Assembly (NCBI GenBank): GCA_019313245.1
Contig: JAFDBP010000040.1
Location: 1-53,308, forward strand
From: Deltaproteobacteria bacterium
GTDB taxonomy: Bacteria; Myxococcota_A; UBA9160; SMWR01
Direction: 5' to 3'
DNA: 53,308 bases
Under the pieces are notes generated by a model. The model searched no databases, was not told the DNA's origin, and saw only the letters and a list, made by a program, of their open reading frames with translations. The first letter of the stretch is position 1. Every line of letters begins with the position of its first letter. The position numbers and the translations under genes were made by a program. Below are positions 2 through 36,939 of this stretch, in pieces.

Positions 2-1894
2 ATGAACCACCTCTGGCGCCAGGGCACCGGCGCGTTCCAGCTCGAGAGCATCGACGGAATGCTCGAGGGGGGCTTCCTCACGGACCTTCAGGATCGAACG
101 CGCTCGACTTCGAGCGGTTCGGAGTTCAACAGGGTAGAGTTGTCCCAGCTTCTGCACCTGAACACATTTGGATACATCTATCACCCCCGATTTCTCACGT
201 TCGACACCGGACTCAAGCTCGAAGCGATTCAGGGCCTGTCCGGACAGAGCGATACGCGGTTCCTGTGGGGTGGCGACTTTCGAATCAACTTCCTGGAGAA
301 CCATCGCAACAGCCTCTCGCTTTTCGGCACAGTACTCGACTCGGAGCAGTCGCCACCTTTCTCGGAGACCTACGACATCACGAACCAGATATTCGGAGCC
401 ACCTTCTTCCAGAAATGGGGCTGGATTCCCTTCGACCTCACGTATAGGCACGCCAGAAGGAAGGGTGGCGCAGGCAATCAGCTCGATGACAAGTCGGACA
501 AGGTGATCTTCGACGGTCGCTATTCGATCGGCGAGCGATCCGATGGAAGAATCGGGTATGACCTCGCCTACGAGGAAATTCAAGATCACGATCTTCGCAG
601 GCAGAACCTGATCGCGACCAACGTGTCCTATTTTGGCGACGGTGTCGACAAGGAGTTGAGAACCGACCTGCGGCTTTTCGAGGAGCGCGACGGCCAGAAG
701 CGTAAAACCGCCAATGGGCGGACGGCCTTCGATTGGCGGCACACCGATACCTTCCGGACGCGCTACGTATTCAACGCACGTTACAGTGATTTCGACGTCC
801 AGGACTCGACCAACCTGAACGGTCGGTTCTTTCTCATGCATCGGCTGTACGAGAGCCTGAAAACGGATCTCGAACTCTACGGAGAATACGAGGACTCCAG
901 CTTTCGCAGGCGAGACGAGTTTGGCGGCATTCTTTCCGCGAATTACCTCAAGCGGCTCGGCGATTGGGGGCGTCTCAACATCGGCGTAGCCCCGCGCACC
1001 TCGATGATCTACAACCGTCTGGAGGAGGATACGGCGTTCGTTTTCGACGAGCGCCACGTCATGGTCGGGCTTCAGCCGGTGCTGTTGAGGCAACCGGACA
1101 TCATCGTTACCAGCATCGTGGTGACAGATGAAACTGGATCGGTCGTGTACGATGAAGGGCCGGCAGGAGACTACATCGTCAACCAGACCGGAGGTGGCAT
1201 CCAGACCGAGCTGGTGCGCACTCCCATCAGCACCATCGGAGACGGGCAACTCGTCCTCGTGGATTACGAGTTCGAGTTGATCGGCGACAACGACACGCTC
1301 CAGACGGGTGTTGCCGTCCATTCCTCCTTGTCGTTCCTGGATTATTGGAGGGTGTTCGGGCGTTACGACAATCAGGATTATCACGTGATCTCGGGAGACG
1401 AAGATCGCCTCCGCTTCAATGACTTCGATCGTTACCTGGCCGGTCTGGAGTTCAGCCGGAAGTGGTTCACCGCGAAGGGAGAATATGAGGAGAACGACGC
1501 GACCTTCGGGTCCTTCCGGGGGTTCGCCGGGATGGTTGCGCTCTACACGGGCGGCATGCGGTCTTGGAACGCTCACGCCACTGCGGATTTCGCCCACAGA
1601 GACCACACGGATGACGTAGGCGAAAAGGTGAATCGCTTTTCGCTTTCAGGAGGTACGAGCAAGCGGTTCTTCAAATGGGGGATGCTGGAGGCCGAAGCAA
1701 GTTGGATGAGGGCGCGCTGGAGCGGACAGTCGAGCGAGGCGAACGACGTCGACGCTCTGCGCGTCAAGCTGAAATACACGTGGTGGTATGAGAATTTCGA
1801 GGTCAAGTTGGAGACTGGATTCGCTCAGCTCCTGCGTCCAACCGAAGACCGCAGCGTGTTCAGATTCGATCTCCGGGCGCGTCGTGTATTCTAG
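2..1894 (+). CDS. Outer-membrane beta-barrel protein (putative porin of a porin-cytochrome/nanowire export complex), probably 5'-truncated by the window edge
   Basis: 630-aa ORF of alternating polar/aromatic beta-strand segments ending in an aromatic beta-signal-like motif (FRFDLRARRVF). No signal peptide is visible, so the true start is likely upstream. First gene of a run with an NHL protein and a multiheme cytochrome. Confidence 0.75.
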   Translation: MNHLWRQGTGAFQLESIDGMLEGGFLTDLQDRTRSTSSGSEFNRVELSQLLHLNTFGYIYHPRFLTFDTGLKLEAIQGLSGQSDTRFLWGGDFRINFLENHRNSLSLFGTVLDSEQSPPFSETYDITNQIFGATFFQKWGWIPFDLTYRHARRKGGAGNQLDDKSDKVIFDGRYSIGERSDGRIGYDLAYEEIQDHDLRRQNLIATNVSYFGDGVDKELRTDLRLFEERDGQKRKTANGRTAFDWRHTDTFRTRYVFNARYSDFDVQDSTNLNGRFFLMHRLYESLKTDLELYGEYEDSSFRRRDEFGGILSANYLKRLGDWGRLNIGVAPRTSMIYNRLEEDTAFVFDERHVMVGLQPVLLRQPDIIVTSIVVTDETGSVVYDEGPAGDYIVNQTGGGIQTELVRTPISTIGDGQLVLVDYEFELIGDNDTLQTGVAVHSSLSFLDYWRVFGRYDNQDYHVISGDEDRLRFNDFDRYLAGLEFSRKWFTAKGEYEENDATFGSFRGFAGMVALYTGGMRSWNAHATADFAHRDHTDDVGEKVNRFSLSGGTSKRFFKWGMLEAEASWMRARWSGQSSEANDVDALRVKLKYTWWYENFEVKLETGFAQLLRPTEDRSVFRFDLRARRVF

Positions 1895-1901
1895 GAGCGC
1901 A

Positions 1902-2978
1902 ATGTCGGTGCTGAAATGCGGACGATCGCGGGAGCTTGTCGCCTCTGCATTTCGGAGGCTCGGCATTTTCGCAGCCATTGCCACAGCACTGGCGTGCGCG
2001 GTGTCGCCGCTCCCGCCGCCGAACTGGAACCATCCCGAAATCGCGTTGTCGTGGCCCGAGGCCCCGGAACCCGCTCGGATCGAGTACATGGGAGTCCTGC
2101 GCAACCCGGCCGACCTGGGCCGCAAACCCGGTTGGTTCGAACGGGTCAAGAACGCGGTTTTTGGCACGGAGCCGAAGTCGTTGCTGAGGCCGACCGCCGT
2201 TGCCAGGAATGCGGCGGGGGTTCTGGCCGTGGCCGATCCCGGCCTTTCGGTCGTCCACCTATTCGATCTCGATCGAAGGGAGTACAGCCAGATCGGTGAG
2301 CAGAGCGCGTCGTTTCTGCGCTCGCCCATCGGCGTCGCGGTCGACGACTCCGGGAGCATCTACGTAGCGGATTCGGTGTTGGGCAGGGTCTTCGTCTTCG
2401 ATGCCAGCCGAGATCTCGTCGCCGAACTGGGAGAGGGCGAGCTGACTCGTCCGGTAGGCGTCGCGCTCGACCCCAGTCAGGAGCACCTCTACGTCGTCGA
2501 TACGATCGAATGTGAGGTGGTCGCGTTCGATCTTTCTTCCGGGCGCGCGGTCAACCGCTTCGGGCGGCGAGGGGTGGGGCCCACCGAGTTCAACGCTCCG
2601 ACTTATGTCGCGGTGGCGCGCGATGGGTCGATCAGCGTCTCGGACTCGCTGAACTTTCGGATTCAGCGTTTTCGCCCGGACGGTACGCCAATCGCTTCGT
2701 TTGGGCTGCCCGGGGATGGGGCGGGGCACTTCGCCCGCCCGAAGGGGGTTGCCATCGACACCGAAGGGCGTATCTACGTGGTCGATGCGGGCTTCGAGAA
2801 CATCCAAATCTTCGATCCGGATGGAGTGTTGCTTCTTCCATTCGCCGGACCGGGGACGGGTCCGGGCCAGTTTTCACTCCCCGGTGGCCTCTTCATCGAT
2901 TCAACGAACACCATCTGGGTTGCCGATGCGTTCAATCGGCGGATTCAGGTGTTTCGGCTGGTGGAACACGCGCCATGA
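1902..2978 (+). CDS. NHL-repeat six-bladed beta-propeller lipoprotein
   Basis: AGGAG (1893-1897) precedes ATG 1902. Lipobox-like TALAC. Repeated P-x-G-V-A-V-D...I-Y-V-A-D...R-I/V-Q-V-F NHL motifs. Overlaps the next gene at ATGA. Confidence 0.88.
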   Translation: MSVLKCGRSRELVASAFRRLGIFAAIATALACAVSPLPPPNWNHPEIALSWPEAPEPARIEYMGVLRNPADLGRKPGWFERVKNAVFGTEPKSLLRPTAVARNAAGVLAVADPGLSVVHLFDLDRREYSQIGEQSASFLRSPIGVAVDDSGSIYVADSVLGRVFVFDASRDLVAELGEGELTRPVGVALDPSQEHLYVVDTIECEVVAFDLSSGRAVNRFGRRGVGPTEFNAPTYVAVARDGSISVSDSLNFRIQRFRPDGTPIASFGLPGDGAGHFARPKGVAIDTEGRIYVVDAGFENIQIFDPDGVLLLPFAGPGTGPGQFSLPGGLFIDSTNTIWVADAFNRRIQVFRLVEHAP

Positions 2979-4657
2979 AGATTCACTTTCTCATCACATT
3001 GTTTGCCCTACTGGCCTTGGCGCTGCCGCATTCGGCCGACGCGAAGGTGCGAGGCACGAAGCACGACCTGTCGGGCCGCAGCGCGGGTGACGGCATGGAC
3101 CAGATCTGCTTCTTCTGTCACACACCTCACACCGTGTTGCCGGCGACGCCGGCCTGGAGTCGAGCGCAATCGACAATCATCTACACGCCCTATTGGAGTC
3201 CGACGTTGGAGGCGACCGTCGGGCAGCCCACGGGTTCGTCGAAGATCTGCCTGAGCTGCCACGATGGCACCATCGCCAGGGCGTCCGCGCCGGATCCCAC
3301 CAAAGCTCGTGGTCCGCGCATGGGTTTTTTCGGGCTTTCGCAACGGGCGAATCTCACTTCTGACCTTTCCGACGATCATCCAATTTCCTTCATCTATGAC
3401 TCCGCGCTGGCTCTGGAAGATCGCGAGTTGGTGGATCCGGCGCTGTTGCCGAACGAGATCCTTCTCGATGCGAATGACGAGATGCAGTGCACGAGTTGCC
3501 ACGACCCCCACGCTTCCAGCTATCCGAAATTTCTGGCGATGAGCAATGCGTATTCGGAGCTCTGCACCGCGTGCCACGACAAGCAGGGTTGGGAGCAATC
3601 GGCCCACTCCACATCGCCGGCCGGATGGAACGGATCGGGAACGAATCCGTGGCCCTACTCGAGTGAGACTTCGGTCGCCGCGAACGGGTGCGCCAACTGT
3701 CACACCGCTCACGGTGCTGGCATCGCGGAGTCGCTTCTGGTGTTTCCGAGGGAGGAGGACAATTGTTTTTCGTGCCACGACGGGAGCACTGCCGATACCA
3801 ATGTTCTGGCTGAGTTTCGCAAGAGTTTTCGCCATCCCGTGGAATCTTCTTTCGGTTCTCACGTGGCGACAGAAGCTCCCTTTGCGATGCCACGACACGT
3901 GGAGTGCCAGGACTGTCACAATCCCCACGCGGCATTCCAGGGCGAGGCCGCGGCGCCCGACATACCCGCATCGCTGAGCGGCGTTTCGGGAGTCGGGGCT
4001 TCGGGGACACCAGTCGAAATCGCACGTTACGAATACGAAGTCTGCTTTCGCTGCCATGCCGATGGGCCGGACGTCCCGTCACCCTACATCGAGAGACAGA
4101 TCCTCGAGCCGAACATTCGCCTCAAGATGGACATCCGAAACCCCTCGTACCACCCCGTGGTGGCTCAGGGGCAGAATGTCGACGTCCCGAGCTTGATCTA
4201 CCCGCTGCGAGAGACGTCGATGATCTATTGCAGTGATTGCCATTCCGGAAGTGCTGGGTCGGCGCAATTCGGTATTCGCGGGCCGCACGGATCCGATTGG
4301 CCATTTCTGCTCGAACAGCCGTACAGCGTTGCGGACGGAACCATCGAGAGCTACCAGGCATACGCCTTGTGTTACAAGTGTCACGATCGAAATCTGCTGC
4401 TCTCCGACGGTCCGACCGGAATACACAACAAGCATGTTGTCGAAGAAGACACGACCTGCTCGGTTTGTCACGACCCCCACGGAATCAGCGCCACCCAGGG
4501 CAACGCGACCAACAATTCCCACCTCATCAACTTCGACATCAGCATCGTCGATCGCGATCCGAATACGGGGATGTTGATGTTCGAGGACATGGGCTCGAAC
4601 CACGGTCAGTGTTATCTCTCATGTCACGGAACGGTGCACAGCCCGGCGGAGTACTGA
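2975..4657 (+). CDS. Secreted 12-heme c-type cytochrome with an N-terminal OmcE-like tetraheme module
   Basis: Sec signal peptide ending in ADA. 11 CxxCH motifs plus one CxxxCH (CYLSCH). The first four hemes follow KHDLS..ICxxCHTPH..SKxCLSCHDG..DDHPISF..CxSCHxxH..LCxxCHDK. Confidence 0.92.
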   Translation: MKIHFLITLFALLALALPHSADAKVRGTKHDLSGRSAGDGMDQICFFCHTPHTVLPATPAWSRAQSTIIYTPYWSPTLEATVGQPTGSSKICLSCHDGTIARASAPDPTKARGPRMGFFGLSQRANLTSDLSDDHPISFIYDSALALEDRELVDPALLPNEILLDANDEMQCTSCHDPHASSYPKFLAMSNAYSELCTACHDKQGWEQSAHSTSPAGWNGSGTNPWPYSSETSVAANGCANCHTAHGAGIAESLLVFPREEDNCFSCHDGSTADTNVLAEFRKSFRHPVESSFGSHVATEAPFAMPRHVECQDCHNPHAAFQGEAAAPDIPASLSGVSGVGASGTPVEIARYEYEVCFRCHADGPDVPSPYIERQILEPNIRLKMDIRNPSYHPVVAQGQNVDVPSLIYPLRETSMIYCSDCHSGSAGSAQFGIRGPHGSDWPFLLEQPYSVADGTIESYQAYALCYKCHDRNLLLSDGPTGIHNKHVVEEDTTCSVCHDPHGISATQGNATNNSHLINFDISIVDRDPNTGMLMFEDMGSNHGQCYLSCHGTVHSPAEY

Positions 4658-4659
4658 TC

Positions 4660-5193
4660 TCACTCGTCCCGAACGAAGAAGTAGGAGACATCCCTCTCTT
4701 CGCCGAATAGCGGGAGTCGGGTCGTCACGAACATGTGATCGGAATCGCTGAACGTGTAGGTGAGCACGGACGGGGAGCGCTCGTGTGTATTCGCGCCGAT
4801 GGCCGCTCGGCGCGCGACCCACGAATGGCCCGAAGATCGGATCGTGAGTGTATTCGCGTTTTCTGAGACGAGTTCCCAGCGGTCGTGGAATGGGCCGCCG
4901 AGCGGGCTCGTGATCTCGTAATGTCCGTCGGAGTGGAAGGTTTCGCGAATCGACGAGAAGGTTTCGCGAAACGCCTCGTCAAAATTCTCCAGTTCGCGAG
5001 GTGAGATCCGCGCGACCTCTTCTCTCTGAGCCGCCCTGTCGATGATCCAACTCCCGATGATTAGCGGTGCCTCGGAACTCGCGAGCGCTCGCTTCGCAGA
5101 CGCATCGAAGGTCCGCTCGGGAGAGTCGCTTTCGCTACAAGCGGCGAGCGCCAGGAGCACCGCGACGGATGCGGCGGAGATGATCATTCGCAT
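4660..5193 (-). CDS. Hypothetical lipoprotein
   Basis: 177-aa ORF with a signal peptide and lipobox LAAC. The mature part is beta-rich (IIGSW start, lipocalin-like). GGGAG upstream. Confidence 0.65.
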   Translation of the reverse strand: MRMIISAASVAVLLALAACSESDSPERTFDASAKRALASSEAPLIIGSWIIDRAAQREEVARISPRELENFDEAFRETFSSIRETFHSDGHYEITSPLGGPFHDRWELVSENANTLTIRSSGHSWVARRAAIGANTHERSPSVLTYTFSDSDHMFVTTRLPLFGEERDVSYFFVRDE

Positions 5194-5542: not shown

Positions 5543-5620
5543 CAATCTCCCGCCTAGATGAAGCCCGGTCAGCCACGGATCTCGAGGTGGAGACGCGGGG
5601 CACCCGGGGGGAGCGCGACC

Positions 5621-6733
5621 ATGAGGCGAGTCAGCGCCAATCGACCGCTGCGGCGCGTCCGGTTTTCACGTCGGGCGACCCTTCTCGGTGCGACCTGCGC
5701 GGCGCTGTTCGCTCTTGCGGTTCCCGAGTTGGCCGGGGCGGCGGCGCTGAGCGACCAAAATCGAGACGGCGTGATCGACGTCGCCGACATCGTTCTCTTC
5801 AGCCAGTCCGAACTCGGACAGGATTGGCAGACCGTCGACTGGTGCGAGTGGCTGCAGACCCCGCGTAGGCGAGAGCGGCACCTCCAACAGCTGCTCGATT
5901 TCATCGACGAGTATTTTCGCTGCGATCAGGGCAATCCCTTTGCGATCCGCGATGCCAACGTTCATCCGACCCGCCTGACCTGGAGCGCGGACGCGAAGAA
6001 GATCTTCGTAACCGATTCCAAGATCGGCTCGGTCTTCATCTATGACTCGCTGGCGACGCCGATCGGAGAACTCAAGGATCTTGCCAAGCCGCTGGGTGTC
6101 GCCGTGAACTCGCAGGGCGACATCTACGTGGGGGACAACCATTCCAACGCGGTAGAGGTCTACAACTCCGAGGGTTCGCGGATCGCGACCATCGGCGCCG
6201 CGACGCTCAAGATGCCCAACGATCTGGCCTTCGACCAGAACGGCCGCCTCTACGTCGCTGACAGCAAGCGGAATCTGGTCGAGGTCTTCGACCCCGCGAG
6301 CGGCGCGAGCCTGCGGACGTTTGGCAGCGGCGAACTGCGCTTTCCGTCCGCGCTGGCGATTTCCGGTCAGGAGGTCTTTGTCGCCGACCAGTCGAACTTC
6401 CTCGTCAGGGTCTACGATCTCCAGGGAAACCTGCTTCGCTCGTTCGGCGGCAAGGTCACCCAGGGGTTCATGAACTACAACTGGCATGGCAAGTTCGCCC
6501 GCCTCCAGAGCCTCGCCGTCGACTCCGCGGGGCGCCTCCACGCCCTGGATAGCCACATGGGCGTGATCCAGATTCTGAGTGCCGCCGACGGCAGCTTCAT
6601 CGCTTCCTACGGGTCGAACGGGTCGGCGCCCGGAGAACTCGACCTGCCCCTGGACATCGACATCAACCAGTACGGAGAAGCGGCAGTGGCCAACACCCGC
6701 AACCGGCGGGTGGAGCTGCTCACGCCGCCCTAG
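5621..6733 (+). CDS. Secreted NHL-repeat beta-propeller with an N-terminal dockerin/EF-hand-like motif
   Basis: GGGGGAG before ATG 5621 (the ORF track start at 5558 is probably too early). Arg-rich signal peptide, DQNRDGVIDVAD motif, then NHL repeats. Confidence 0.82.
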   Translation: MRRVSANRPLRRVRFSRRATLLGATCAALFALAVPELAGAAALSDQNRDGVIDVADIVLFSQSELGQDWQTVDWCEWLQTPRRRERHLQQLLDFIDEYFRCDQGNPFAIRDANVHPTRLTWSADAKKIFVTDSKIGSVFIYDSLATPIGELKDLAKPLGVAVNSQGDIYVGDNHSNAVEVYNSEGSRIATIGAATLKMPNDLAFDQNGRLYVADSKRNLVEVFDPASGASLRTFGSGELRFPSALAISGQEVFVADQSNFLVRVYDLQGNLLRSFGGKVTQGFMNYNWHGKFARLQSLAVDSAGRLHALDSHMGVIQILSAADGSFIASYGSNGSAPGELDLPLDIDINQYGEAAVANTRNRRVELLTPP

Positions 6734-6750: not shown

Positions 6751-9700
6751 ATGGGATTCGAAGCGCGCTCGCATACGCGATCCACCAGCGACGGGTGGCG
6801 TGGTGTGCGCGCAGCGCGAGTGTTCCCAGCGCTCGTTTGCTTCGGGCTGCTACTCCTGGTCGCTCCGAGTGCCTTCGCCGCACAGGAGCGCATGCCTCTC
6901 GACTCGATTGCTGCCGACGGCTGCAATTGGAACAGCTGCACGGTCGCGAATCTCGACGAAGACCCGGATGGACCCGGGACGGATTGGGCGACGGCGTTCG
7001 ACAACAACACCAATCACGACGGCCACTTCGGCTTCGGAACCCCCAGTCAGCCCCTGGCGACAGGTGCCGATCTCCAGGAGTTCCGCGCGTCGGTTCGCAA
7101 GAATTCCAGCTGTGGCACGGGCACGCCCAGCGCCCGGATCGAGCTGTGGGAGAACGGCGCGCTGGTGCGAGCGGGTACCGACACTTCTGTCACGGCCGCC
7201 AACTCGTGTACCCAGGGCAGCGACTGCCAAGTCCTCAGCTTCACCTGGAACGCGACGGAGGTCACCGCGGCCGCTAACGTCGAGGTGAAGATCTTCGGCC
7301 TCAAGGCGGGCGGCAGCCCGTCGACCCGCTGTGCGGTGGATCTCGGGGCGGTCGAGTGGAACGCCGAGGTCAGTGCCGCGACGTTGCCCACGCTATCAGC
7401 GCCGACGAGTCCGTTCGCGACGATCGATACCGGTACGGCCACGCTCGGCGCGACGATCGACACCAACGGCGGCGGAACGATCAGCGAGTACGGGACGGTA
7501 TGGGGCACCTCGCCCAACCCGACCGGCAGCGTGCTCGCCGCGGGCACCGACAATCCCGCCATGCCGCACACCTTCTCGCACAGTCGGACGATCACACAGC
7601 TTCCCGGTACGTTCATCTACTTCCGAGGTTACGCGGATAACGGTGTCGGCCGCGCCTACTCGCCCGACGGCTCCTTCTACCTCGAGCCCAATCCGCCCGA
7701 CCCGGGCGTCAGCTTCACGAACGTCACCGACAATGGCATGCGAATCAGCTGGACACCGCCGGGAACCGGCGCCGGCGACGGGGCGATCGTCGTGCTGAAG
7801 CAGGGGGCGACGGTGGATTCCGATCCGTCGGACGGCGTGGCGCACGTCGCGGATACCGTTTTCGGAAACGGCGCCGAGCTCGGGACCGGGAACTTCGTGG
7901 TCTTTCGGACCTCGGGCACGCAGGTCGACGTGACGGGTCTATCGCCCAGCACACAGTACGCCGTTGCTGTCTACACCTACGCGGGCCCGACGGCGCCGGC
8001 GATCAACTACCAGCAGGACTCTCCGGCGACCGGAACCCAGACCACCACCGGCCCGACGCCGACGCCAACGGCGACACCGACCGCCACACCGACGGCGACG
8101 CCGACTGGGACGCCGACTGCCACGCCGACCACGACACCGACCCCAACGGCCACGCCGACGGCGACGCCCACGGGTACACCTACGGCCACGCCGACCGCTA
8201 CGCCGACGTCTACGCCGACTGGGACTCCGAGCGCCACGCCGACCGCCACGCCGACGTCTACACCCACCGGGACTCCGACCGCAACGCCTACTGCTACGCC
8301 GACCGCGGCGCCATCTCAGCCGACTCGGGCTCGGTTCGAATCCACCCGGGTGGCCGAGACGGAGTTGGTTCTTTCGTGGCGACTCGGCGTGAGTGACGGC
8401 GTCATCGTTCTGATGCGATCTGGTCTCGCCGTCGACGCGGACCCGGTGGACGGAACCACGTATTCAGCCAATTCCGTGTTCGGCAATGGCTCGCAAATCG
8501 GAACGGGCAACTACGTCGTCTATATCGGTAGCGGGACGGAGCAGACGATTACCGGCATCGCGCCCGATACCACCTATCATGTGGCGATCTACACGTATAC
8601 CGGATCCGGGCCCGGCATCGATTACATCCAACTCGACCCGAGCCGCGGCCAATCGGGTCACAACGCCTCGCACGGCATCGACTGCGGCGTCTGCCACTTC
8701 GGCACCGGGACTTCCCACGGAAACTTCACGGTGCCGCGGGATGCCGATCAGCAGGCGGTCTGCGAGACCTGCCACAACGACACCGGGCCGGCGTCGGGCA
8801 AGTTGAATTTTGCACTCCACAGCGGCACGAAATACAACGCCGACGTGGATTGCGGCTCGTGCCACGAAATGCACAACAATTACGACTTCACGACGACCGA
8901 CACCCACACCGGCGGCGTGACGGCTGCAAACATCGTGTGGATCCGCTCGGATACCGCGAAGTACGTCGCGGGGGCGCTCGAGCCCGCGCTGTATCAGAGC
9001 AGCACGGGTTCCGAGGCCTGGGACGACAGCAACGCGCCGTGGAACGGCTTGTGCCAGACCTGCCATCAGAACACCGACTGGCACCGCAACGACAACAGCC
9101 TCGGGGCGGGTAGCCACGACCACGAGATGCCCACCGACAATTGCCAGGGATGCCATCCCCACACGGACGGTTTCCGCGGTGCCGGCGGCGACTGCTTGGC
9201 CTGCCACAAGCAGCAGAAGGAGATCTCGACCAGCCCGGGCACCTTCCGCCGCCAGATCACTGAAAGCAGCGCGGGGGCCGGGGACGGCGAGTTCAGCACC
9301 GGCTTCACCTCGCACCACGTCAACGACGGCAGCGGTTCACAGGTGGTGACGCTGTGGGATTGCGTGGTCTGCCACGCCGAGGGCAACGCAATTACGGGTG
9401 AAGCGGATGATAATTATCACAAGAAGGACGGCGTGCAGCTCAAGGATACGGATACGGGCGCGGTGTACAGCGACTGGTCGGGTCTGACGCCGGCCCAGCG
9501 ATCGAGCTTCTGTCTCAGCTGCCACGACTCGGACGGCGCGACCATCATCACGGGTCGCACCGATCCCGATCCGGACGCGACCACGAATCCGCTGAATCCG
9601 TTCAACGACGGCGTCACCAACTCTCACGAGCCAGACGGCTTCGATGGCACTCCGGCGCCCCACTCGCGCGGGACCGTGCTGGACGTCGAGAGTCAGTTCG

Positions 9701-10422
9701 ACACCCAGAACGTCAGCCACCACGGAGTGCTGGGCCCCGCCTACGTCTACGCAACCGACTGCGTGGCGGCCGGAGATCCGCACTCGTGTTGCACGGGATC
9801 TGGAACCGGACCCACTTGCGGGCTCCCCTTCGGATCCATCGTCAACGCCGCCATCCAGGGCGTGCGGACCGACCTCGATTGGAACTCGGTCATCGACTGC
9901 GAGGATTGCCACATCGGCCCGCCCGCGTTCGGCGGCGGTTCGGTCGTGCTGGGCGGCCACGGAACGCCGACAGCTCGCTACATGCTGAGGGACCACAATG
10001 GCGCCGAGCAGGTGACGGCACCGGTCGACGCGTCGACGGTCATCTGTCGCCGTTGCCACGACCCCGAATCTTCGAGCATCTATCCCTACCACACGCGCAG
10101 CGCGCACATGACCAACCTGCTGAACATCTTCGGCGTCGCCTGCATCGACTGTCACGGTGGCGGTGAGTGGGGGGGCATTCACGGCGTCGATGCCGTGGTT
10201 ACCGATGACGATGGCGGCGGCAGCTACAACCCCAACGTCTTTACCTACGGCAGTTCGCTCGACCTGATCCAGAACTGGACTGATTGGACGGACGGCGGCA
10301 TTTCCTGCTCGGCAGTGGCGAGTAAGACGCAGATCAACGACTGCACGCAGCACGGCGCGCAGAGCTACGCCCGCGACCCCCGGCGAGACGATGCGCCACA
10401 GCGCATCTACAGGCTTCCCTGA
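6751..10422 (+). CDS. Large modular extracellular multiheme cytochrome c (Cys-rich N-domain, FN3-like domains, Thr/Pro linker, 11 CxxCH)
   Basis: AGGAGG RBS and a signal peptide ending in AFA. Two homologous FN3-like domains flank an 84-aa TPTx repeat. The C-terminal half has 11 CxxCH motifs and many extra His. Confidence 0.9.
8053..8304 (+). repeat. 12-bp-period coding tandem repeat encoding ([12 protein letters not shown])n, about 20 units
   Basis: Translation [23 protein letters not shown]...TPT. Synonymous codons vary between units. Confidence 0.95.
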
Positions 10423-10496: not shown

Positions 10497-11888
10497 ATGA
10501 CTTCTAGCCGTCTCGGGAATTGGCTGCGGCGCCAGCACGTGCGCCTCGCATCGGGGCGCCTGACCGCCTGGCTGCTGGCGGTCCTCGTATTCGTTCTCGG
10601 CGTCTATCTGTTCATTCCGCAAGATCGACAGGTGAGCGCGCTCGCAATCGAGGGTTGGGTCGAACAGAAGGGGCTGCTGGGGCGGGTGTGTCACGCGCTC
10701 GGGTTCAACTCCATCTTGCACTCGCCGCTGTTCTGGGGCACGTGCGCGCTGATGTTCGTCAATCTGGTGCTGTGTATGATCCGGCGGATTCGCTCCACGC
10801 TGAGCCTGTTTCGCTTCCCAGAGCGGCCGCCCCAGGCTTCGCTGGCCTGGCAGCGCCGCGAGATCGCTGGGCCGACCCTCGCGGAGGAAGGCATCGCCGA
10901 GCTACTCGGCAAGCGGGGGTTTCGCACGCTCGTCGACGACGGCAGGGTCTACGGGCTGCGCGGGCGATTCGCAATTGCCGGGCACTGGATCTTTTATCTG
11001 GGTCTGCTCGCCATGTTGGTCGTCGGGACTCTTGTGGCGCTGGCCCCGAAGCCCTTTCGCGGCCTGGTCGGCGTGGGAGACGGTGAGCCATTCGCACTGC
11101 ATCGCTCGCCCTTCCTCTCGACCCGCGATGCCGTTGCGCCCGAGCTTCCGGATCTGCGCTTCCAGGTGGAAGAGATCGAGACGCTGACGGAAGGAACGGA
11201 GACGGTTCACTTCGAAGCCCACGTCACGACGCCCGAGGGCGATCGGGGAATCATCGGTGTCAACCGGCCGTTCCGGCAGACGCCCTACCAGGTGATGGTT
11301 CACGGCTTCGGCTACATGGCGGGCTGGGCGATCACCGACTCGGGCGGCCGAATGGTCAACGGAGCCTGGGTGAAGCTGATTCCCTTTCCGCTGCTGCGCT
11401 CGGATACTTTTTCCATCGGCAGAGGAGAGAGCACGGTGCGCGTGCGTCTTTACCCCGATCACTACATGGAGGGAGAAACGCATCAGAGTCGAAGTTACGA
11501 ACTGCAAAACCCCCGATACACCGCGCGCATCTTCTGGCGCGGTTCGAAGATATACGACGGATTGCTCGAGCCGGGGCAGCGGGTGCCGCTCGAAGATGGC
11601 CTGGAATTCTTCTTCCTCCCCGAGATTCGGCGCTACGCGACGCTCGAAGTCATCCAGGAACGCGGCTATGTGGCGGTTTTCGCTTGCCTGGGGGTCATGA
11701 TCCTAGGTCTCGCGATCCGCTACTTTAGGATCCGCAAAGAGGTGCTGGTGCAGCGCAGCGAGGGGTCGATGGAAGTCTTTGGGCGCGGCGAGATCTTCGA
11801 GAGCCTCTTCGCCGAAGAATTCGACCAATTGGTCGACGCGCTGGCGAGTGCGAGTTTGCGCTCCGAGGATCCGAGGGGGGCCGCTTGA
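10497..11888 (+). CDS. resB: Cytochrome c biogenesis protein ResB/CcsB-like (System II)
   Basis: HSPLFW..LMFVNLVLCMIRR motif, three N-terminal TM segments, a large periplasmic domain and a C-terminal TM. Translationally coupled to ccsA. Confidence 0.8.
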   Translation: MTSSRLGNWLRRQHVRLASGRLTAWLLAVLVFVLGVYLFIPQDRQVSALAIEGWVEQKGLLGRVCHALGFNSILHSPLFWGTCALMFVNLVLCMIRRIRSTLSLFRFPERPPQASLAWQRREIAGPTLAEEGIAELLGKRGFRTLVDDGRVYGLRGRFAIAGHWIFYLGLLAMLVVGTLVALAPKPFRGLVGVGDGEPFALHRSPFLSTRDAVAPELPDLRFQVEEIETLTEGTETVHFEAHVTTPEGDRGIIGVNRPFRQTPYQVMVHGFGYMAGWAITDSGGRMVNGAWVKLIPFPLLRSDTFSIGRGESTVRVRLYPDHYMEGETHQSRSYELQNPRYTARIFWRGSKIYDGLLEPGQRVPLEDGLEFFFLPEIRRYATLEVIQERGYVAVFACLGVMILGLAIRYFRIRKEVLVQRSEGSMEVFGRGEIFESLFAEEFDQLVDALASASLRSEDPRGAA

Positions 11889-12784
11889 GCCCGGTCGAGT
11901 ACGCAGCCTTCTGGACCACCGTCTTCGCGTACGCGCTGGGAACGGCGCTGTCGCTTTCGGGCATCGTCTTCAATCGCGAGCGCTGGCTCACAGCTGCGGG
12001 CGCCGTCTGCACGGTCGGGCTTCTCGCCCATCTCGTCGCGGTTGGCGCGCGGATCGAATTCACCGGGCACCTGCCGGTGGCGAGCCGCTACGAAAATGTC
12101 CTGACCGGATCGGCGGTCGTGATGCTCTTCAGCCTCATCACCATTTTGCGCCGGCGTAGCCTGAAGCCGATGGTCGTGTTTGTGGCGCCGTTTGCATTGT
12201 TGATGCTGGGCTATGCGCTGCTCGAGCAGCCCCGCTACACGACCATGTCGCTCGTCCTCGACAACCTCTGGATGTTCATCCACATCTTCTTCGCCTGGCT
12301 GGCCTACGGCGCCTACTCGGTAGCGGCGGCGCTCGGCGTGGTCTACCTGCTGCGCAGCCGCGCGAATGCGAATCAACTGCCCCCGTTGCTCCAGCGCCTG
12401 CCGGAGCCGAACGTGCTCGACGATCTGATCTTCCGCTCGATCATCTTCGGTTTCATCGGCCACGTGGTGATGATCTCGACGGGCGCGATCTGGGCGCGCG
12501 ATCTCTGGGGCAACTACTGGAACTGGGATCCGGTGGAAACCTGGAGCCTGCTCTCCGGCCTGCTCTACGGGCTCTGGATCCACCTGCGGGTGGGGTTGCA
12601 CTGGCGCGGGCGCCGCATGGCCTGGCTCGCCGTCGGCTCTCTACTGACTGTGGTGTTCGCGTTCTGGGGCACGAACATGTTCGGCGGGACGAGCCACTCG
12701 CTCGACGACCTTCGACTCAAGGCGCCCGGCGAAGAGGCCGGCCTCGCCCCGGAGCCTTCGATCCCCGAGCCGCCCGCGAATTGA
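11885..12784 (+). CDS. ccsA: Cytochrome c synthase CcsA/ResC (System II)
   Basis: WWD motif TGAIWARDLWGNYWNWDPVETW. Conserved His in WMFIH, WIHLR and TSHS. The TTG start overlaps the resB stop. Confidence 0.93.
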   Translation: MSPVEYAAFWTTVFAYALGTALSLSGIVFNRERWLTAAGAVCTVGLLAHLVAVGARIEFTGHLPVASRYENVLTGSAVVMLFSLITILRRRSLKPMVVFVAPFALLMLGYALLEQPRYTTMSLVLDNLWMFIHIFFAWLAYGAYSVAAALGVVYLLRSRANANQLPPLLQRLPEPNVLDDLIFRSIIFGFIGHVVMISTGAIWARDLWGNYWNWDPVETWSLLSGLLYGLWIHLRVGLHWRGRRMAWLAVGSLLTVVFAFWGTNMFGGTSHSLDDLRLKAPGEEAGLAPEPSIPEPPAN

Positions 12785-13392: not shown

Positions 13393-14949
13393 CTAGCGGG
13401 ATGTCTGGTTCGCCGCGTCGCCGACGGTCTCTCCGGGCTCCTCGTCGTCACCGTCCAGCTTGACCGAGTAGGGGCAGAGCTTCATGGCCTCCTCCTCGAT
13501 TCCGACGATGCCGATCCGCTTGAGCAGGGCCCGGATTTCCGGGGGCATGCCCTTGCCGGAGGCCATCTTCTTGCGGACGAAGGAACTCCCCATGATGAGC
13601 TTCATCGCGCGCAGCATGTAGTCGCGGCGCGCTGAATCTCGGTCGGTGAAGACCGACACGGCTTTGTGGGTGTAGAACGAGCGGTAACAGTCGACGATCG
13701 CGTTGTCGACGTCCGCGAGGCTCATCGCTTTCGGGCGGATGACCGGGTCGATCAGGTTGTACTTCCGGTAGTCGTGCGACGCGATGTGCGGCTCCATCTC
13801 CTTCCAGAGTTGGGTGTAGGGCCAGGGCGTGATTGCGAGGTAGTGGGCGTTGTCGGGATCGTAGGTCTTCGAGAGTTCGAGGGTGCGCTTGATACTCTCG
13901 GGCGTTTCGTCGGGAAAGCCGAGCACGAAGGAGGTCTCGCTGACGATTCCGTGCTGGTAGAGCAACCGGAGCGCCTGGATGCCGCTCTCGACGTTCGCGT
14001 CCTTGTTGATCAGGTCGAGCGTCTCTTGGTCCGTGGCCTCGATGCCGACGTACACGTGGGCGATCCCGGCGGCGACGTATTTGTCGAGAATCGGCTCGTC
14101 GCGCACGACATCTCCGACGCGGGTTTCGAGCAGCAGTTTCTGTCCGAGATCCCGCTCGATCACCAGGTCGAGGATGCTCTCCCAGCGGCGCGCATCGGGC
14201 GTGGGGTACTCGTCGGAGAGCAGGATCACATCGACGTCGTGTTCGCGACGCAGAAATTCGAGTTCGTCGACCACGCACTCGGGCGATCGCCCGCGCCAGC
14301 TGCGGTTCCAGAACTTCTGCTGTGAGCAGAACGTGCAGCCGTGCATGCAGCCGCGCGAAGTGCTGATCGCGCCCAACCGCGACCCCGGATAGACGAAGTA
14401 GGTGTAGGTCGGCCAATCCAGCAGGTCCCACGCGAGCGGCAGTCCGTCGAGGCTCGGGTGCCACGGGCGCGTGGGATTGGATTCCGGGGCGCCGTCTTTG
14501 CGATGTGCGACGCCGCGCACCTTTGCGACGTCGCCGCCATCACGCAGCGCGGTCAAAAGCTCTGTGAAGCTGTGCTCGCCCTCGCCGCGAATGACGAAGT
14601 CGACCGGGTGACCCGGCTCTTCGAGAACCCGGCGCCACATGAAGGAGGCGTGGACGCCGCCCATTGCGGTGCGGGCGCCGAGCGCCTTGGCGACCTTCAT
14701 GATTTCCAGCCCATCGGGATAGGTGGCGGTGATGCAGGAGGTCGCGACGATGTCGGGCTCTTTCGTCTCGATGGCGCGCGCGATGTCATCGTGTGTCGCG
14801 TCGAGGCTCATCGCGTCGTAGATCTCGCACTCGAATCCCGCCTCGCGCGCGCTGCCGGCGAGGTAGACCAGGTGGAGCGGAATCCAGCGCCCCGCCACCT
14901 CGACGACTCCACAGTGGTACGGCGGCGTGATGAATAGAACCTTGGTCAT
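13393..14949 (-). CDS. Cobalamin (B12)-binding radical SAM enzyme (class B / BchE-like)
   Basis: N-terminal B12-binding-type domain (KVLFITPP..PLHLVYLAG..GGVHAS), SRGCMHGCTFC CxxxCxxC motif, GIEA and GFPDET motifs. Confidence 0.9.
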   Translation of the reverse strand: MTKVLFITPPYHCGVVEVAGRWIPLHLVYLAGSAREAGFECEIYDAMSLDATHDDIARAIETKEPDIVATSCITATYPDGLEIMKVAKALGARTAMGGVHASFMWRRVLEEPGHPVDFVIRGEGEHSFTELLTALRDGGDVAKVRGVAHRKDGAPESNPTRPWHPSLDGLPLAWDLLDWPTYTYFVYPGSRLGAISTSRGCMHGCTFCSQQKFWNRSWRGRSPECVVDELEFLRREHDVDVILLSDEYPTPDARRWESILDLVIERDLGQKLLLETRVGDVVRDEPILDKYVAAGIAHVYVGIEATDQETLDLINKDANVESGIQALRLLYQHGIVSETSFVLGFPDETPESIKRTLELSKTYDPDNAHYLAITPWPYTQLWKEMEPHIASHDYRKYNLIDPVIRPKAMSLADVDNAIVDCYRSFYTHKAVSVFTDRDSARRDYMLRAMKLIMGSSFVRKKMASGKGMPPEIRALLKRIGIVGIEEEAMKLCPYSVKLDGDDEEPGETVGDAANQTSR

Positions 14950-15244: not shown

Positions 15245-15260
15245 CGGCACGTCCTTTGCA
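15245..15260 (+). promoter_or_regulatory. Putative sigma-54 (-24/-12) promoter for the FG-GAP/PEP-CTERM gene
   Basis: CGGCACGTCCTTTGCA matches GGCACG-N4-TTGCA. GG at 15246-15247, GC at 15258-15259. Confidence 0.7.
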
Positions 15261-15273
15261 CAGGTTGGTAGAC

Positions 15274-21689: not shown

Positions 21690-21973
21690 CGATTCCCCCA
21701 GCCTCTGCAAGCTATCTAATTTGCCTGGATTTGCCGCTGGGCATACCTTCGGCTCGTTAGGTGTTCCGCAAGAATTGGCAGCAACCTGAATTCGTACCCG
21801 CCGCGTGCAATCCCAGCACGAGTTCCGCGCCAACTTGCACGCTAGTTGCACATCGGATCCGAGTCGAAAGGGTCTTCTTCGCGCAGCGGATGCGGAAAAT
21901 TCCGCAGGTGTGCGCCAGATCACGCCGCAAGTCATTTGCATTCACCGGGGGTCCGCCCTCAGCGAGGCGTAAA

Positions 21974-22825: not shown

Positions 22826-22903
22826 GGGCGCGGCACACCCCCAGGGGTGTTGCAGGGAATTTGAGGTATCTTGCGCGCCGTAAACGGGAATCGGGAGTAC
22901 GGG

Positions 22904-24046
22904 GTGAGGAAGATTCGAGGTCAACGGAGTCGGTCACTATCGGCAAACAGGAGATCGCGCGCCGTTGCGCGTTCTGGCACGGCGCTCGCCGTGCTGATCG
23001 GCTTCGGAGTCTGCATTCTGCTTTCTTCCTGCGCGGGCACCGGTGAGCCGGTCGAGCGCGATTACGTTCTCTTCCCACCTCCGCCGCAGCAGTCCCGCAT
23101 TCAGTTCCTGGCAGCCTACAACGGCGACGAGGACATTCTCCCGCCGTTGAGCGGCTTTCGCCGCCTCGTCATGGGCGAACGCGAGGGCCGCTTGCTGATC
23201 AAACCCTACGGCGTGGCGATCCACGACGGTCAGATCCTGATCTGCGACACGAAGCCCAACATCGTCGCGGTATTCGACCTCAGGAACCAGACAGTCGAGA
23301 TCCTCGGTGAGGGGCCGAGCGGCCAACTCGCCAAGCCGGTCAACATCGCGGTGGATGAGGATGGCACCCGCTACGTGGCGGACGCGAAACTCAACCGGGT
23401 GATGGTCTACGACGCGGATAACCGTTACGTCCGAGCGATCGGCAATCCCGAGGCCTGGTCGCCCACCGACGTCGCCATCATCGGCAAGCGACTCTACGTC
23501 ACCGACAGGAAGAATGGAGAGGTCGTTCTCGTCGAGAAAGCGACCGGCGAGGAGCTGAGGCGATTCAGTCCGGCTGGCGCCGGAGAAAATGCGCTCTTCT
23601 TCCCGACCAACCTCGCCGTGGGCGTCGACGGAAGCGTGTACGTCACCGAGACGGGGCATGCCCGGGTCCGCAAGTTCGACGATCGGGGGAAGCTGCTCAA
23701 GACCTTCGGTTCTCTGGGCGAGAGGCTGGGCCAGTTCGTGCGCCCAAAAGGCGTCGCGGTCGATCGTGATGGCAACGTCTATGTGGCGGACGCCGCTTCC
23801 GAGGTCGTCCAGATCTTCAATCCCGATGGCGATCTGCTGCTCTTCTTTGGCGGACCGGGAAATCGCCCGGGTGGGATCAACATGCCCGCGAAGGTGGTGA
23901 TCGATTACGACAACGTCGATCTCTTCGCGGATCGCGTGGCCCCCGGTTACAAGCTCGAATACCTGGTCGTCGTCACCAGTCAATTCGGGTCGAACAAGGT
24001 GAGCGTGTTTGGTTATATCGAGCCGAACGGGCAGGGCGGTGGTTGA
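22904..24046 (+). CDS. NHL-repeat beta-propeller lipoprotein (start could also be TTG 22871)
   Basis: Lipobox LSSC. The FPPPPQQSRIQF motif resembles WPEAPEPARIEY in the 1902 paralog. NHL repeats include FVRPKGVAVD. Confidence 0.87.
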   Translation: MRKIRGQRSRSLSANRRSRAVARSGTALAVLIGFGVCILLSSCAGTGEPVERDYVLFPPPPQQSRIQFLAAYNGDEDILPPLSGFRRLVMGEREGRLLIKPYGVAIHDGQILICDTKPNIVAVFDLRNQTVEILGEGPSGQLAKPVNIAVDEDGTRYVADAKLNRVMVYDADNRYVRAIGNPEAWSPTDVAIIGKRLYVTDRKNGEVVLVEKATGEELRRFSPAGAGENALFFPTNLAVGVDGSVYVTETGHARVRKFDDRGKLLKTFGSLGERLGQFVRPKGVAVDRDGNVYVADAASEVVQIFNPDGDLLLFFGGPGNRPGGINMPAKVVIDYDNVDLFADRVAPGYKLEYLVVVTSQFGSNKVSVFGYIEPNGQGGG

Positions 24047-24801: not shown

Positions 24802-26274
24802 ATGAAGCGTCACGGCACTCGAAACGCGGTTGCGGAGAGTGGCGCCGGAATCGCCGACTGGGCGCGTCACCCACTCTCGCTGTTCCTGCTCTTCCTCGGC
24901 AGTCTGCTCCTCTACGCGAAGACGACGACGTTTGGATTCCTGCCGATGTGGGACGACGGTTTCTACGTCGTCCACAACCCGCAGATCCAGCAGTTCAGCC
25001 CGGCGAATCTGGCCGAGATTCTCGGCAGCACATTCAAGGGTTCGTATCACCCGCTGCCGTTGCTGAGTTACGCGCTCGAGCACGCACTCTGGGGACTCGC
25101 GCCGGGCGGCTACCACGCGACCAACGCATTGCTCCACGCTTTCAATAGCTGCCTGGTCTCGTTACTGCTCGTTCGGCTCACCGGCCGGCCCGGCCTGTCT
25201 CTGTTCGCGGCGATCTTATTCGCCGTTCATCCGGTCAACGTCGAGAACGTCGCCTGGGTGTCCGAGCGCAAGACCTTGCTCGCCGGGGCCTTCGGGCTGG
25301 CTTCGCTGCTGGTGTACCTGCGCCACCTCGAAACGGGTCGACGCCGAGACTACGCCGGTGCATTGGCGCTCTACCTGCTTGCGTTGTCTTCCAAGGCGAC
25401 CTTCGTCGTGCTTCCGCTGGTGCTGCTGCTCCACGCGCTGCTGCTCGACGGGGTCCGGCGTCGCTGGCGACGCTCTCTCCCGTTCTTTGCGGCGACGGCT
25501 GTGGTGCTCGCGGTAACCATCCGGGCCTTCGCGGCCGAGAGTTTGTTCGAGGCGGGTTCGCTGCGGCCTTCCACGCTCCTTGGAAGCGTGTATCCCACGA
25601 TGTTGCCGGTCTTCTGGAAATACCTCGGGCTGCTGGCGTTTCCAGCGGAGTTGAGCGGATTCTACGAAACATCACTCCACCACTCGTTCGCGAGCCTTCC
25701 CGTTCTGGCCTCGCTCCTGGGTTGGATCGCGGTATTCGCGCTCGTGCTGTTGCGCGGCAGCTCGCAGGTACGCTTCTGGTTTCTCTGGTACTGGGTCTGG
25801 TTGCTTCCGGCGTCTAATTTGATTCCCGGACTTGTCTATTACGCTGACCGCTACCTGTATTTCCCCGGTATTGGCGCCTACGTGCTGCTGGGTATGGCGG
25901 GGCGCTGGTTGGCGGGATCGGACTTCGCTGCCCGTTGGAGCCTCGCTCGGCGCCGGCGCGTTCTCGTCGCTGTGGGCGCAGCACTGGCAGCGGCCTACGC
26001 GGGCGTGGCCTTCCTGCGCATGGAGGTATGGCGCGACGAATTGGCCTTCTGGGAAGATGCAGCCCGCAAGTCACCCGGCATGTACAAGCCGCGTCTGAAT
26101 TTGGGTGTGGTTTACGAAAGCGAGGGGCGCCTGGCCGAGGCGGAGCGCGAATACCTGGCCGCGGAGCAAATCTTCCCGAATCCGAATGTCCGCGAGAATC
26201 TGCAGATCCTGCGGGCGCGGATGGCAGTGCGCGAATCGAGACCGCAAGTTCCGAAGCGTGAGGCGCAAGACTGA
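24802..26274 (+). CDS. TMTC-like GT-C membrane glycosyltransferase with a short TPR tail
   Basis: MWDDGFYV, YHPL, YHATNALLH, FAVHPVNVENVAWVSERK and ADRYLYFP motifs. GAGGA RBS. Confidence 0.85.
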   Translation: MKRHGTRNAVAESGAGIADWARHPLSLFLLFLGSLLLYAKTTTFGFLPMWDDGFYVVHNPQIQQFSPANLAEILGSTFKGSYHPLPLLSYALEHALWGLAPGGYHATNALLHAFNSCLVSLLLVRLTGRPGLSLFAAILFAVHPVNVENVAWVSERKTLLAGAFGLASLLVYLRHLETGRRRDYAGALALYLLALSSKATFVVLPLVLLLHALLLDGVRRRWRRSLPFFAATAVVLAVTIRAFAAESLFEAGSLRPSTLLGSVYPTMLPVFWKYLGLLAFPAELSGFYETSLHHSFASLPVLASLLGWIAVFALVLLRGSSQVRFWFLWYWVWLLPASNLIPGLVYYADRYLYFPGIGAYVLLGMAGRWLAGSDFAARWSLARRRRVLVAVGAALAAAYAGVAFLRMEVWRDELAFWEDAARKSPGMYKPRLNLGVVYESEGRLAEAEREYLAAEQIFPNPNVRENLQILRARMAVRESRPQVPKREAQD

Positions 26275-30372: not shown

Positions 30373-30400
30373 CGGCAACCGTGGTTACGCGGTGTGCGCA

Positions 30401-32332: not shown

Positions 32333-32486
32333 CCGGCCTCCAGGGTCGATACGTGCCCGCCATGGGGGGTCTCGGCGCGCGTTCGCGTGTAGTGCGGGGG
32401 AATTCTATCCGATCTGCTCTGCGATTCGAGTGCGATGCGCGCGCGATCGAAGCCGCGCTGCAATTTCGCGTTACACTCGCGAGCCG

Positions 32487-36850: not shown

Positions 36851-36939
36851 ATCCCTCTTTTCGAAATCCCGCCTCCCGAAGTGAAGGCCGGCTCGGCGCG
36901 CGTGATACCTTTGGCGGCCAGGGGGTGTTGTCCGTCGCG

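Follow-up and report, generated by a model that had tools for sequence, protein, structure and literature searches.

How a cytochrome nanowire starts and ends, how it is attached to the cell and how electrons are fed into it are stated to be open in the available text of the 2026 OmcE bundle paper (PMC13712944), in which an OmcE-like anchor or tip was sought without a candidate being found in OmcE operons. The same question is raised by a 53,308-nt stretch of DNA from a Deltaproteobacteria bacterium (contig JAFDBP010000040.1; the whole stretch is called the window below), which encodes a 12-heme cytochrome and, about 17 kb away, a free OmcE-like tetraheme cytochrome. An earlier note, made from the letters of this DNA, had described the 12-heme protein as beginning with a full copy of an OmcE-like subunit and had proposed it as a possible base or cap adaptor of a filament. 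We found that residues 24–203 of the protein are a true full-length OmcE-type unit, beyond the shared paired CXXCH motifs, that the protein is a member of a large cross-phylum family and no one-off fusion, and that this family, the free OmcE-like tetraheme and a large beta-barrel constitute one conserved gene cluster. That this protein, which is of the UetJ type, is the fixed first unit (base, anchor or cap) of a stack or polymer of the free tetraheme, with its rod in the adjacent barrel, is a reading to which we give about an even chance.

OmcE-type unit and octaheme extension of the 12-heme cytochrome

The 12-heme cytochrome is a protein of 560 amino acids (aa), to which the residue numbers below refer. 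It carries eleven CXXCH motifs, with the first Cys at residues 45, 92, 172, 197, 239, 264, 311, 357, 419, 466 and 495, and a non-canonical CX3CH motif at residue 546; the name 12-heme given in the earlier note therefore stands for the number of motifs, of which eleven are canonical. Neither a lipobox nor a membrane anchor was found in the sequence. Residues 1–203 aligned in BLASTP with residues 1–207 of the free tetraheme with identity in 84 of 219 columns (38%, E = 4e-41), the small protein being wholly covered. In phmmer searches of PDB sequences, both window proteins aligned end to end with two solved OmcE-type subunits, 9yuq_N (E = 6.1e-28 for the 12-heme protein and 5.5e-28 for the free tetraheme) and 7tfs_A (E = 2.4e-21 and 1.2e-23), the aligned part of the 12-heme protein being residues 8–203 in each case. 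The unit is therefore OmcE-type beyond mere likeness of heme motifs. These matches bear out the full OmcE-like copy described in the earlier note, and the five motif pairs quoted there were all found in the translations as written. Pfam and NCBIfam returned generic names only (Paired_CXXCH_1, cytochrome c3/c7), and the NCBIfam DmsE/MtrA family TIGR03508 scored 63.1 bits, below its cut-off of 192.2.

The same eight His are invariant in 36 members of the free-tetraheme family, and all eight are also invariant in the module of 83 sequences of the 12-heme family (H30, H49, H52, H96, H135, H176, H179 and H201). The free tetrahemes end 2–3 residues past the fourth CXXCH, as do both solved OmcE chains; in the window's tetraheme of 207 aa, CHDK is followed by the stop, three residues past the fourth CXXCH. 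In the 12-heme protein, the fusion junction coincides exactly with the C-terminal end of the OmcE-type unit. The module thus lacks the free C-terminus at this point, and the chain runs 357 residues further. The eight additional hemes that the earlier note had described past the end of the small protein begin exactly there, as seven CXXCH and one CX3CH, and it is only the C-terminal end of the unit that is covalently extended, as the first reading had it. Module and free tetraheme share with OmcE of G. sulfurreducens (7TFS) and D. soudanensis (9YUQ) the four CXXCH, the four extra His and the end-to-end alignment. In contrast to OmcE, the module is not free-standing, its C-terminus continuing into eight more hemes. 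Module and free tetraheme are the only OmcE-like units found in the source genome, which is 84% complete.

Distribution and conservation of the 12-heme family

In a word-indexed search, 7599 of 8000 scored candidates matched the 12-heme protein at E ≤ 1e-5. The best 120 candidates were nearly all 535–615 aa long and aligned over the full length with 47–81% identity, and their existing names were only ‘cytochrome c3 family’ or ‘predicted CXXCH cytochrome’. A scan covering a single genome for each species gave at least 589 relatives in the 600 matched stretches listed. The 80 loci taken for comparison came from groups that include Myxococcota, Acidobacteriota, Nitrospirota, Calditrichota, Planctomycetota, Ignavibacteria, Bacteroidota and Verrucomicrobiota, as well as Beta- and Gammaproteobacteria, Desulfobacterota and Zixibacteria. 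The earlier note had recognized the OmcE-type module and had overlooked that the protein belongs to a known family of very large size (UetJ-type). Among 30 relatives of the source genome, the 12-heme protein was present in four and an OmcE-like match alone in a fifth; the cluster is therefore accessory.

Eleven of the 12 heme motifs were invariant in alignments of 24 and 83 members, and in the fifth motif the second Cys and the His (C242 and H243) were nearly invariant (at least 90% in the 83-row alignment). The CX3CH motif, W206 and H211 were invariant in the 83 sequences, which contain 28 invariant His for 12 hemes, and the last residue, Y560, was invariant or nearly so.

Conserved gene cluster

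ORFs (open reading frames) were called in the 80 loci and searched with the window proteins; the 40 loci in which 7.5 kb or more flanks the 12-heme gene on each side were regarded as full-flank loci. A free tetraheme was defined as a protein with 3–5 CXXCH, shorter than 345 aa, matching at E < 1e-15 and with the window's small protein as its best match. A propeller of the type encoded directly upstream in the window (NHL1) ended at the 12-heme start in 75 of the 80 loci; in the window, the stop of NHL1 overlaps the start of the 12-heme gene at 2975–2978. A free OmcE-like tetraheme was present in 52 of the 80 loci; of the 40 full-flank loci, 39 had one no further than 10 kb away. The free tetraheme was directly followed by a propeller of a further type (NHL3) in 46 of the 52. 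Single-sequence phmmer, which probably undercounts, detected a barrel homologue in 27 of the 40 full-flank loci. The usual order was tetraheme, NHL3, an optional 5- or 13-heme protein, barrel, NHL1 and 12-heme protein. For 15 loci without a tetraheme, the whole genomes were searched, and a tetraheme was found elsewhere in 10; 13 further tetraheme-less loci lay outside this search.

Four loci (L028, L029, L073 and L081) carry two free OmcE-like tetrahemes each. In L029 and L073, the second copy immediately precedes the pair of NHL1 propeller and 12-heme protein and has a gene for a 14-heme protein on its other side.

Split forms and phylogeny

The two parts of the 12-heme protein also occur separately. 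Of 401 genomes of Desulfobacterota, the phylum of locus L053, 43 gave a match at E ≤ 1e-20, and twelve regions were examined. In nine genomes of this sample, an NHL1-type propeller, an OmcE-like tetraheme (222–308 aa) and an octaheme (357–470 aa) were encoded by adjacent genes. The split octaheme has seven CXXCH and one CX3CH, and aligns with the window protein from about residue 221 or 281 up to residue 560. Every one of these octahemes carries a signal peptide of its own, and a His some 11 residues ahead of the first CXXCH is conserved. As judged from these alignments, the 12-heme protein is a tetraheme plus an octaheme. Fused and divided forms of this kind are a classic mark of parts that cooperate in physical contact, and the nine genomes with the halves as separate adjacent genes therefore argue that the OmcE-type tetraheme and the octaheme work as a physical pair.

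One Geobacter-type carrier of the split pair (G107) also has a true OmcE orthologue (E = 7e-119 to 7tfs_A), while its split tetraheme is a distant OmcE relative only (E = 1.5e-18). The OmcE cluster of G107 comprises purE/D, resB/ccsB, 9-heme and 8-heme proteins, a propeller, OmcE, a 746-aa barrel and glycosyltransferases, in agreement with the Geobacter OmcE cluster as given in the available text of PMC13712944.

A quick IQ-TREE tree was computed from 137 rows, comprising 81 fused modules, 46 free tetrahemes, 9 split tetrahemes and one OmcE orthologue; free tetrahemes without exactly four CXXCH, of 300 aa or more, or with E ≥ 1e-25 were excluded. All free tetrahemes fell on one side of a branch with a support of 92 in the Shimodaira–Hasegawa-like approximate likelihood ratio test (SH-aLRT), and modules and split tetrahemes fell on the other. 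The fusion is therefore old.

Two other architectures were observed. A form of 734–784 aa consists of an OmcE-type unit, about 140 residues of the 12-heme family (query 11–345) and an unrelated C-terminal part, with 11 CXXCH in total; it was seen in L092 (6162–8366, reverse strand) and six further genomes, with an NHL1-type propeller upstream. In L083 (1–7441) and L085 (8751–16002), the split pair is followed by a triheme protein and then by genes resembling GspF/PilC, GspE/PilB and PilM/N/O, with no barrel; this type II secretion- or type IV pilus-like set was named by eye from the translations.

Structure models and internal repeat

The 12-heme protein was modelled with AlphaFold2 (AF2) from 83 sequences with a predicted local distance difference test score (pLDDT) of 71.2 and a predicted TM-score (pTM) of 0.71, the extension having pLDDT mostly of 80–90. 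A Foldseek search of this model against the PDB gave nothing at E ≤ 0.001, which is no surprise for a heme protein that is rich in coil and was modelled without its hemes. The model was also compared with 48,161 representative chains by VIA-align. The best match was MtrA (6r2q_A; Z 9.2, root-mean-square deviation 4.0 Å, 223 of 265 residues aligned, 28% identity), with model residues 123–519 on MtrA 69–333. Because a best Z of 7–8 is common by the tool's own note, this match is a lead and not proof. It suggests that the extension may resemble MtrA, the cytochrome inside the MtrB barrel, a likeness that the first reading of the locus had missed. OmcE (7tfs_A) was matched by model residues 29–202 with Z 6.6 and 152 aligned residues, in the low-confidence part of the model; together with the full-length sequence match, this favours an OmcE-type unit over a generic paired-CXXCH domain, which, if it did not interact with the tetraheme, had been named as one of the findings that would overturn the adaptor proposal. 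OmcS (6ef8_A) was matched by residues 284–556 with Z 5.1.

The barrel ORF of the window had no match in Pfam or NCBIfam, and a profile of the barrel family had nothing below E = 0.85 among PDB sequences. An AF2 model of the barrel homologue of L004 (pLDDT 81.5) showed 18 strands, a small insert and about 12 more strands, and resembled large outer-membrane barrels in Foldseek, namely MtrB (6r2q_B; TMq 0.39), LptD and ushers. The gene family neighbouring the 12-heme gene is thus predicted to fold as a very large barrel of about 30 strands, in contrast to the 26 strands of MtrB according to the available text of the uet paper (10.1101/2022.05.06.490989). As with MtrA (6R2Q chain A), the putative linear heme rod is encoded beside a large barrel. 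MtrA has 10 hemes, against 12 here, and the N-terminal OmcE-type unit has no counterpart in it.

Whether the extension consists of two more degenerate OmcE units was considered and found to have some support. In hhalign, residues 24–205 aligned with residues 206–380 at 97% probability (E = 1.1e-10), co-linear through all motifs and with H30 opposite H211, and the free-tetraheme profile aligned with residues 206–380 at 98.4% (E = 7.6e-15). An unrelated 13-heme family of the same loci scored about as well as a control, at 97.3% (E = 2.6e-11) with the free-tetraheme profile and at E = 3.6e-12 with the module, and therefore a composition of three OmcE units is not established. The third segment, residues 381–560, reached a probability of 56–80% only.

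Relation to the uet, OmcE and OmcP/OmcO clusters

By gene content, matched against the published description, the cluster appears to be the uet cluster, with the 12-heme protein as UetJ and the tetraheme as UetA. The uet cluster, known from ‘Candidatus Tenderia electrophaga’, for which it was named, and from Tenderiales, was described from genomics and expression only. As given in the available text, its parts include the tetraheme UetA, the 28-strand barrel UetC with a pore of about 5 nm, the NHL proteins UetH and UetI, and UetJ with eleven CXXCH, with ccsAB downstream, and its authors considered that UetJ and UetA may interact and that one of them may polymerise (10.1101/2022.05.06.490989). 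The window agrees with this description in its 11-CXXCH cytochrome with an NHL gene directly before it and cytochrome-maturation genes after it, and in the presence of a tetraheme, a very large beta-barrel and NHL propellers; it differs in the place of the tetraheme, which heads the uet cluster and lies distant from the 12-heme gene here. Only three frames in the 53-kb window have two or more CXXCH, namely those of the 12-heme, 1223-aa and tetraheme proteins. Thus no frame for a triheme c7 protein of the UetD/E/G type was found in it, the DNA upstream of the barrel being off the contig. No family match to a cupredoxin (UetF) or a peptidyl-prolyl isomerase (UetB) was obtained among 29 scanned ORFs, mostly of at least 180 aa, by a scan that was not aimed at these families and left most smaller frames aside.

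The gene content also matches the minimal OmcE cluster described in the available text of PMC13712944, which consists of two multiheme cytochromes, two propeller lipoproteins, OmcE and a large barrel, in many cases with GT39 and TPR genes after them; in Geobacter-type clusters, these GT39 and TPR genes are linked there to filament glycosylation. A ResB/CcsA pair flanks the Geobacter-type OmcE cluster as well.

The cluster and the family (UetJ-type) are known by name. UetJ-like proteins were listed as ‘doubled CXXCH, 11 and 12 hemes’ in a Gallionellaceae survey, and the available part of a 2026 peat preprint describes, for Acidobacteriota and Verrucomicrobiota, syntenic clusters of the porin-cytochrome kind that encode ‘OmcE-like’ and ‘MtrA-like’ proteins. 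In the literature searched, which comprised main texts with supplements and figures outside the search, we found no link from UetJ or UetA to OmcE and no description of the ‘undecaheme’ protein as starting with a full OmcE-type unit or as split in some lineages. The available text of the uet paper (10.1101/2022.05.06.490989) does not mention OmcE, and none of the terms Uet, Tenderia, undecaheme and OmcP occurs in PMC13712944. A 12-heme gene may already be recorded for some OmcE clusters in the uet tables and in the gene lists underlying Fig. 4D of PMC13712944. The present comparison joins the uet electron-uptake clusters with the OmcE nanowire clusters through shared parts; a cross-citation between the two was not found in the literature searched.

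In the available texts on Geobacter, the NHL protein Gmet_0556, OmcP (Gmet_0557) and OmcO (Gmet_0558) stand in this order (PMC9070056, 10.1101/2022.05.06.490989). The order NHL, OmcP, OmcO (GSU2913/GSU2912 in G. sulfurreducens; Gmet_0557/Gmet_0558) fits that of the split NHL, tetraheme and octaheme genes. Because the gene order matches and OmcE is grouped with OmcP in the available published work, the split pair is possibly OmcP/OmcO. 

Proposed role of the 12-heme cytochrome

In the proposed mechanism, a complete OmcE-type tetraheme unit, fused in frame at its C-terminus to an MtrA-like octaheme rod, would be exported by means of its Sec signal peptide and would receive its hemes from the ResB/CcsA system encoded nearby. 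The rod would lie in the adjacent barrel, as MtrA lies in MtrB, and electrons would cross the outer membrane through it. The extension takes up the heme-4 end of this unit and would leave its heme-1 end free, the N-terminal His30 lying seven residues into the mature chain. The free OmcE-like tetraheme may dock at the heme-1 end by the end-to-end heme and histidine contact of the OmcE filament, in which, according to the available texts (PMC9473688, PMC13712944), the adjoining subunit supplies a histidine ligand to one heme. His30 or the partner's N-terminal histidine would cross the junction, and the 12-heme protein would be the fixed first unit of a short stack or polymer of the tetraheme. 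The gene linkage, the eight shared His, the split pair, the MtrA match and the independent suggestion of a UetJ–UetA interaction by the uet authors make the docking plausible. Part of the adaptor interpretation of the earlier note is likewise supported, by the linkage and the fused and split forms. The latter name a concrete candidate pair of proteins for end-to-end docking.

Several observations weigh against this role. Residues 18–136 fell below pLDDT 50 in the AF2 model, which was built without hemes, and the module is thus poorly modelled. The N-terminus of MtrA is periplasmic, and the co-linear MtrA match, if it bears orientation, puts the N-terminal unit in the periplasm, which is a misfit with an extracellular filament growing from that unit. 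A set of eight His for four hemes is as compatible with a monomer as with a polymer. No free tetraheme was found in five of the 15 genomes that carry the 12-heme gene and were searched whole, these being metagenome-assembled genomes of unknown completeness. The 8- and 9-heme proteins in the OmcE cluster of G107 are about 330 aa long and there is no 12-heme protein there; since this OmcE orthologue sits in a separate cluster, validated OmcE filaments need no 12-heme fusion in cis. In the tree, the orthologue also falls on the side of the modules and split tetrahemes, apart from the free tetrahemes, on a long branch of unsure placement, which weakens the case for the free tetraheme as the filament-forming orthologue. 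OmcP and OmcO of G. sulfurreducens were reported as unneeded for Fe(III) oxide reduction in the available text of PMC9070056, which counts here only if the split pair is OmcP/OmcO. A complex prediction for the mature 12-heme protein (residues 24–560, 83-row alignment) and the mature free tetraheme (residues 29–207, 36 rows), made with four hemes as a reduced form of hetero-oligomer modelling without controls, scored 0.30 and 0.28 against a mark of 0.32; unlike the observations above, it tips the balance neither way as to binding.

As an alternative, the 12-heme protein may be part of a plain porin-cytochrome conduit, MtrA-like in the barrel and with the OmcE-like unit as mere heme wire inherited from an ancient duplication and fusion. 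The free tetraheme would then act at another place, either shuttling in the periplasm or bound as an outer partner at the C-terminal end, with no homotypic docking. MtrA being the best structural match fits such a conduit, as do the five genomes in which no free tetraheme was found; fused modules and free tetrahemes are two old separate clades, so that their similarity need not mean contact, and paired-CXXCH proteins resemble each other widely, as seen with the 13-heme control. The tight linkage of the two proteins in nearly all full-flank loci is less easily reconciled with it, and neither the eight OmcE His and long non-ligand motifs kept in both clades nor the split forms, in which an OmcE-type tetraheme is the separate partner of the octaheme, would be expected. 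We regard this explanation as possible, though on the unlikely side. It would still leave a useful annotation, that of a UetJ-type conduit as an OmcE unit plus an MtrA-like rod.

A bolder form of the first-unit proposal, in which the 12-heme protein is the fixed end of an OmcE nanowire, threaded through the barrel, its extension perhaps two degenerate OmcE-type units making a three-subunit seed, and in which Geobacter-like lineages have the same device as tetraheme plus octaheme, seems to us doubtful. If it holds, the first free tetraheme would stack on the 12-heme protein, and one covalent heme chain would both anchor the polymer and connect it electrically to the periplasm.

The 12-heme protein could also be a filament subunit itself, polymerising head to tail, with the N-terminal unit on the C-terminal end of the next copy and a 12-heme repeat, the free tetraheme being a separate wire or cap. 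The OmcE-type N-terminal end, the weak OmcS likeness, the spare ligands among the 28 invariant His and the polymerisation of UetJ raised in the available text by the uet authors (10.1101/2022.05.06.490989) agree with this. The C-terminal end, however, is unlike an OmcE unit, with its CX3CH heme, conserved beta-hairpin and invariant or nearly invariant Y560, and the constant barrel pairing and the MtrA likeness fit a fixed conduit better; such self-assembly is thus improbable. A soluble electron store or carrier in the periplasm, with no set position at the barrel and with a gene neighbourhood reflecting co-regulation only, would suit the lack of a lipobox or membrane anchor and the periplasmic location predicted for GSU0616-type and other Geobacter multihemes in the available text of PMC1829397, but is very hard to reconcile with an order of barrel, propeller and 12-heme gene that recurs in many phyla, with stop and start codons that overlap.

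Since the family occurs in many phyla, any role found would apply widely, to sediments, soils and groundwater.

Other genes in the window

The coordinates of the features are collected in Table 1.

Table 1. Features of the 12-heme cytochrome and of neighbouring genes in the window
Feature	Position	Strand	Basis or remark
Outer-membrane beta-barrel (putative UetC-like porin), 5′ end cut by contig start	2..1894	+	homologues of about 650–840 aa adjoin the 12-heme gene in other loci (phmmer)
NHL-repeat beta-propeller, NHL1	1788..2978	+	Pfam NHL, E = 4.4e-26; true start probably the second Met near 1902
12-heme cytochrome	2975..4657	+	ORF, 560 aa
Signal peptide, residues 1–23	2975..3043	+	hydrophobic N-terminus to the motif ADA, then mature KVRGTKHDLS; cleavage site read by eye
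OmcE-type tetraheme unit, residues 24–203	3044..3583	+	4 CXXCH and 4 further invariant His (H30, H52, H135, H179)
Octaheme extension, residues 204–560	3584..4657	+	7 CXXCH and 1 CX3CH; invariant W206 and H211 just past the junction; C-terminal beta-hairpin
Second NHL propeller, NHL2	5558..6733	+	Pfam NHL, E = 8.3e-23
Secreted cytochrome, 1223 aa, with fibronectin-III domain, long Pro/Thr-rich (TPTATP-like) linker and 11 CXXCH in the C-terminal half	6751..10422	+	Pfam fn3, Cytochrome_C7; motif count
ResB and CcsA-type (System II) cytochrome c maturation genes	10497..12784	+	Pfam ResB, E = 2.1e-23; Cytochrom_C_asm, E = 1.9e-33
Free OmcE-like tetraheme (UetA-type), 207 aa	22121..22744	+	BLASTP to the module; phmmer to OmcE subunits
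Third NHL propeller, NHL3 type	22871..24046	+	Pfam NHL, E = 3.6e-19; usual neighbour of the free tetraheme

Pairs of an NHL protein and a large multiheme protein (16–24 hemes), comparable in position to NHL2 and the 1223-aa cytochrome, also occur downstream of the 12-heme gene in L032, L057 and L071, and L093 encodes a 1193-aa protein that matches both. Directly after the 12-heme gene of the window lies an ORF of 177 aa (4660–5193, reverse strand) with a lipoprotein-like N-terminus (LAAC) and without a Pfam or NCBIfam match.

Between the cytochrome maturation genes and an FG-GAP repeat protein, a B12-binding radical SAM protein is encoded at 13393–14949 (reverse strand). The FG-GAP protein (15256–19575, forward strand) has 1439 aa and 12 scored repeats. 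Its C-terminus, with PEPG, a hydrophobic stretch and basic residues, reads like a PEP-CTERM sorting signal.

The free tetraheme is surrounded by genes for large membrane proteins at 19554–21941 (reverse), 24802–26274 (forward), 28630–30378 (reverse), 30401–32332 (reverse) and 32253–34208 (forward), with further genes at 26323–28629 (reverse) and 36673–38412 (forward). PMT_2 (GT39-like) domains are present in two proteins of this run and TPR repeats in three, and two sulfatase-family proteins belong to it.

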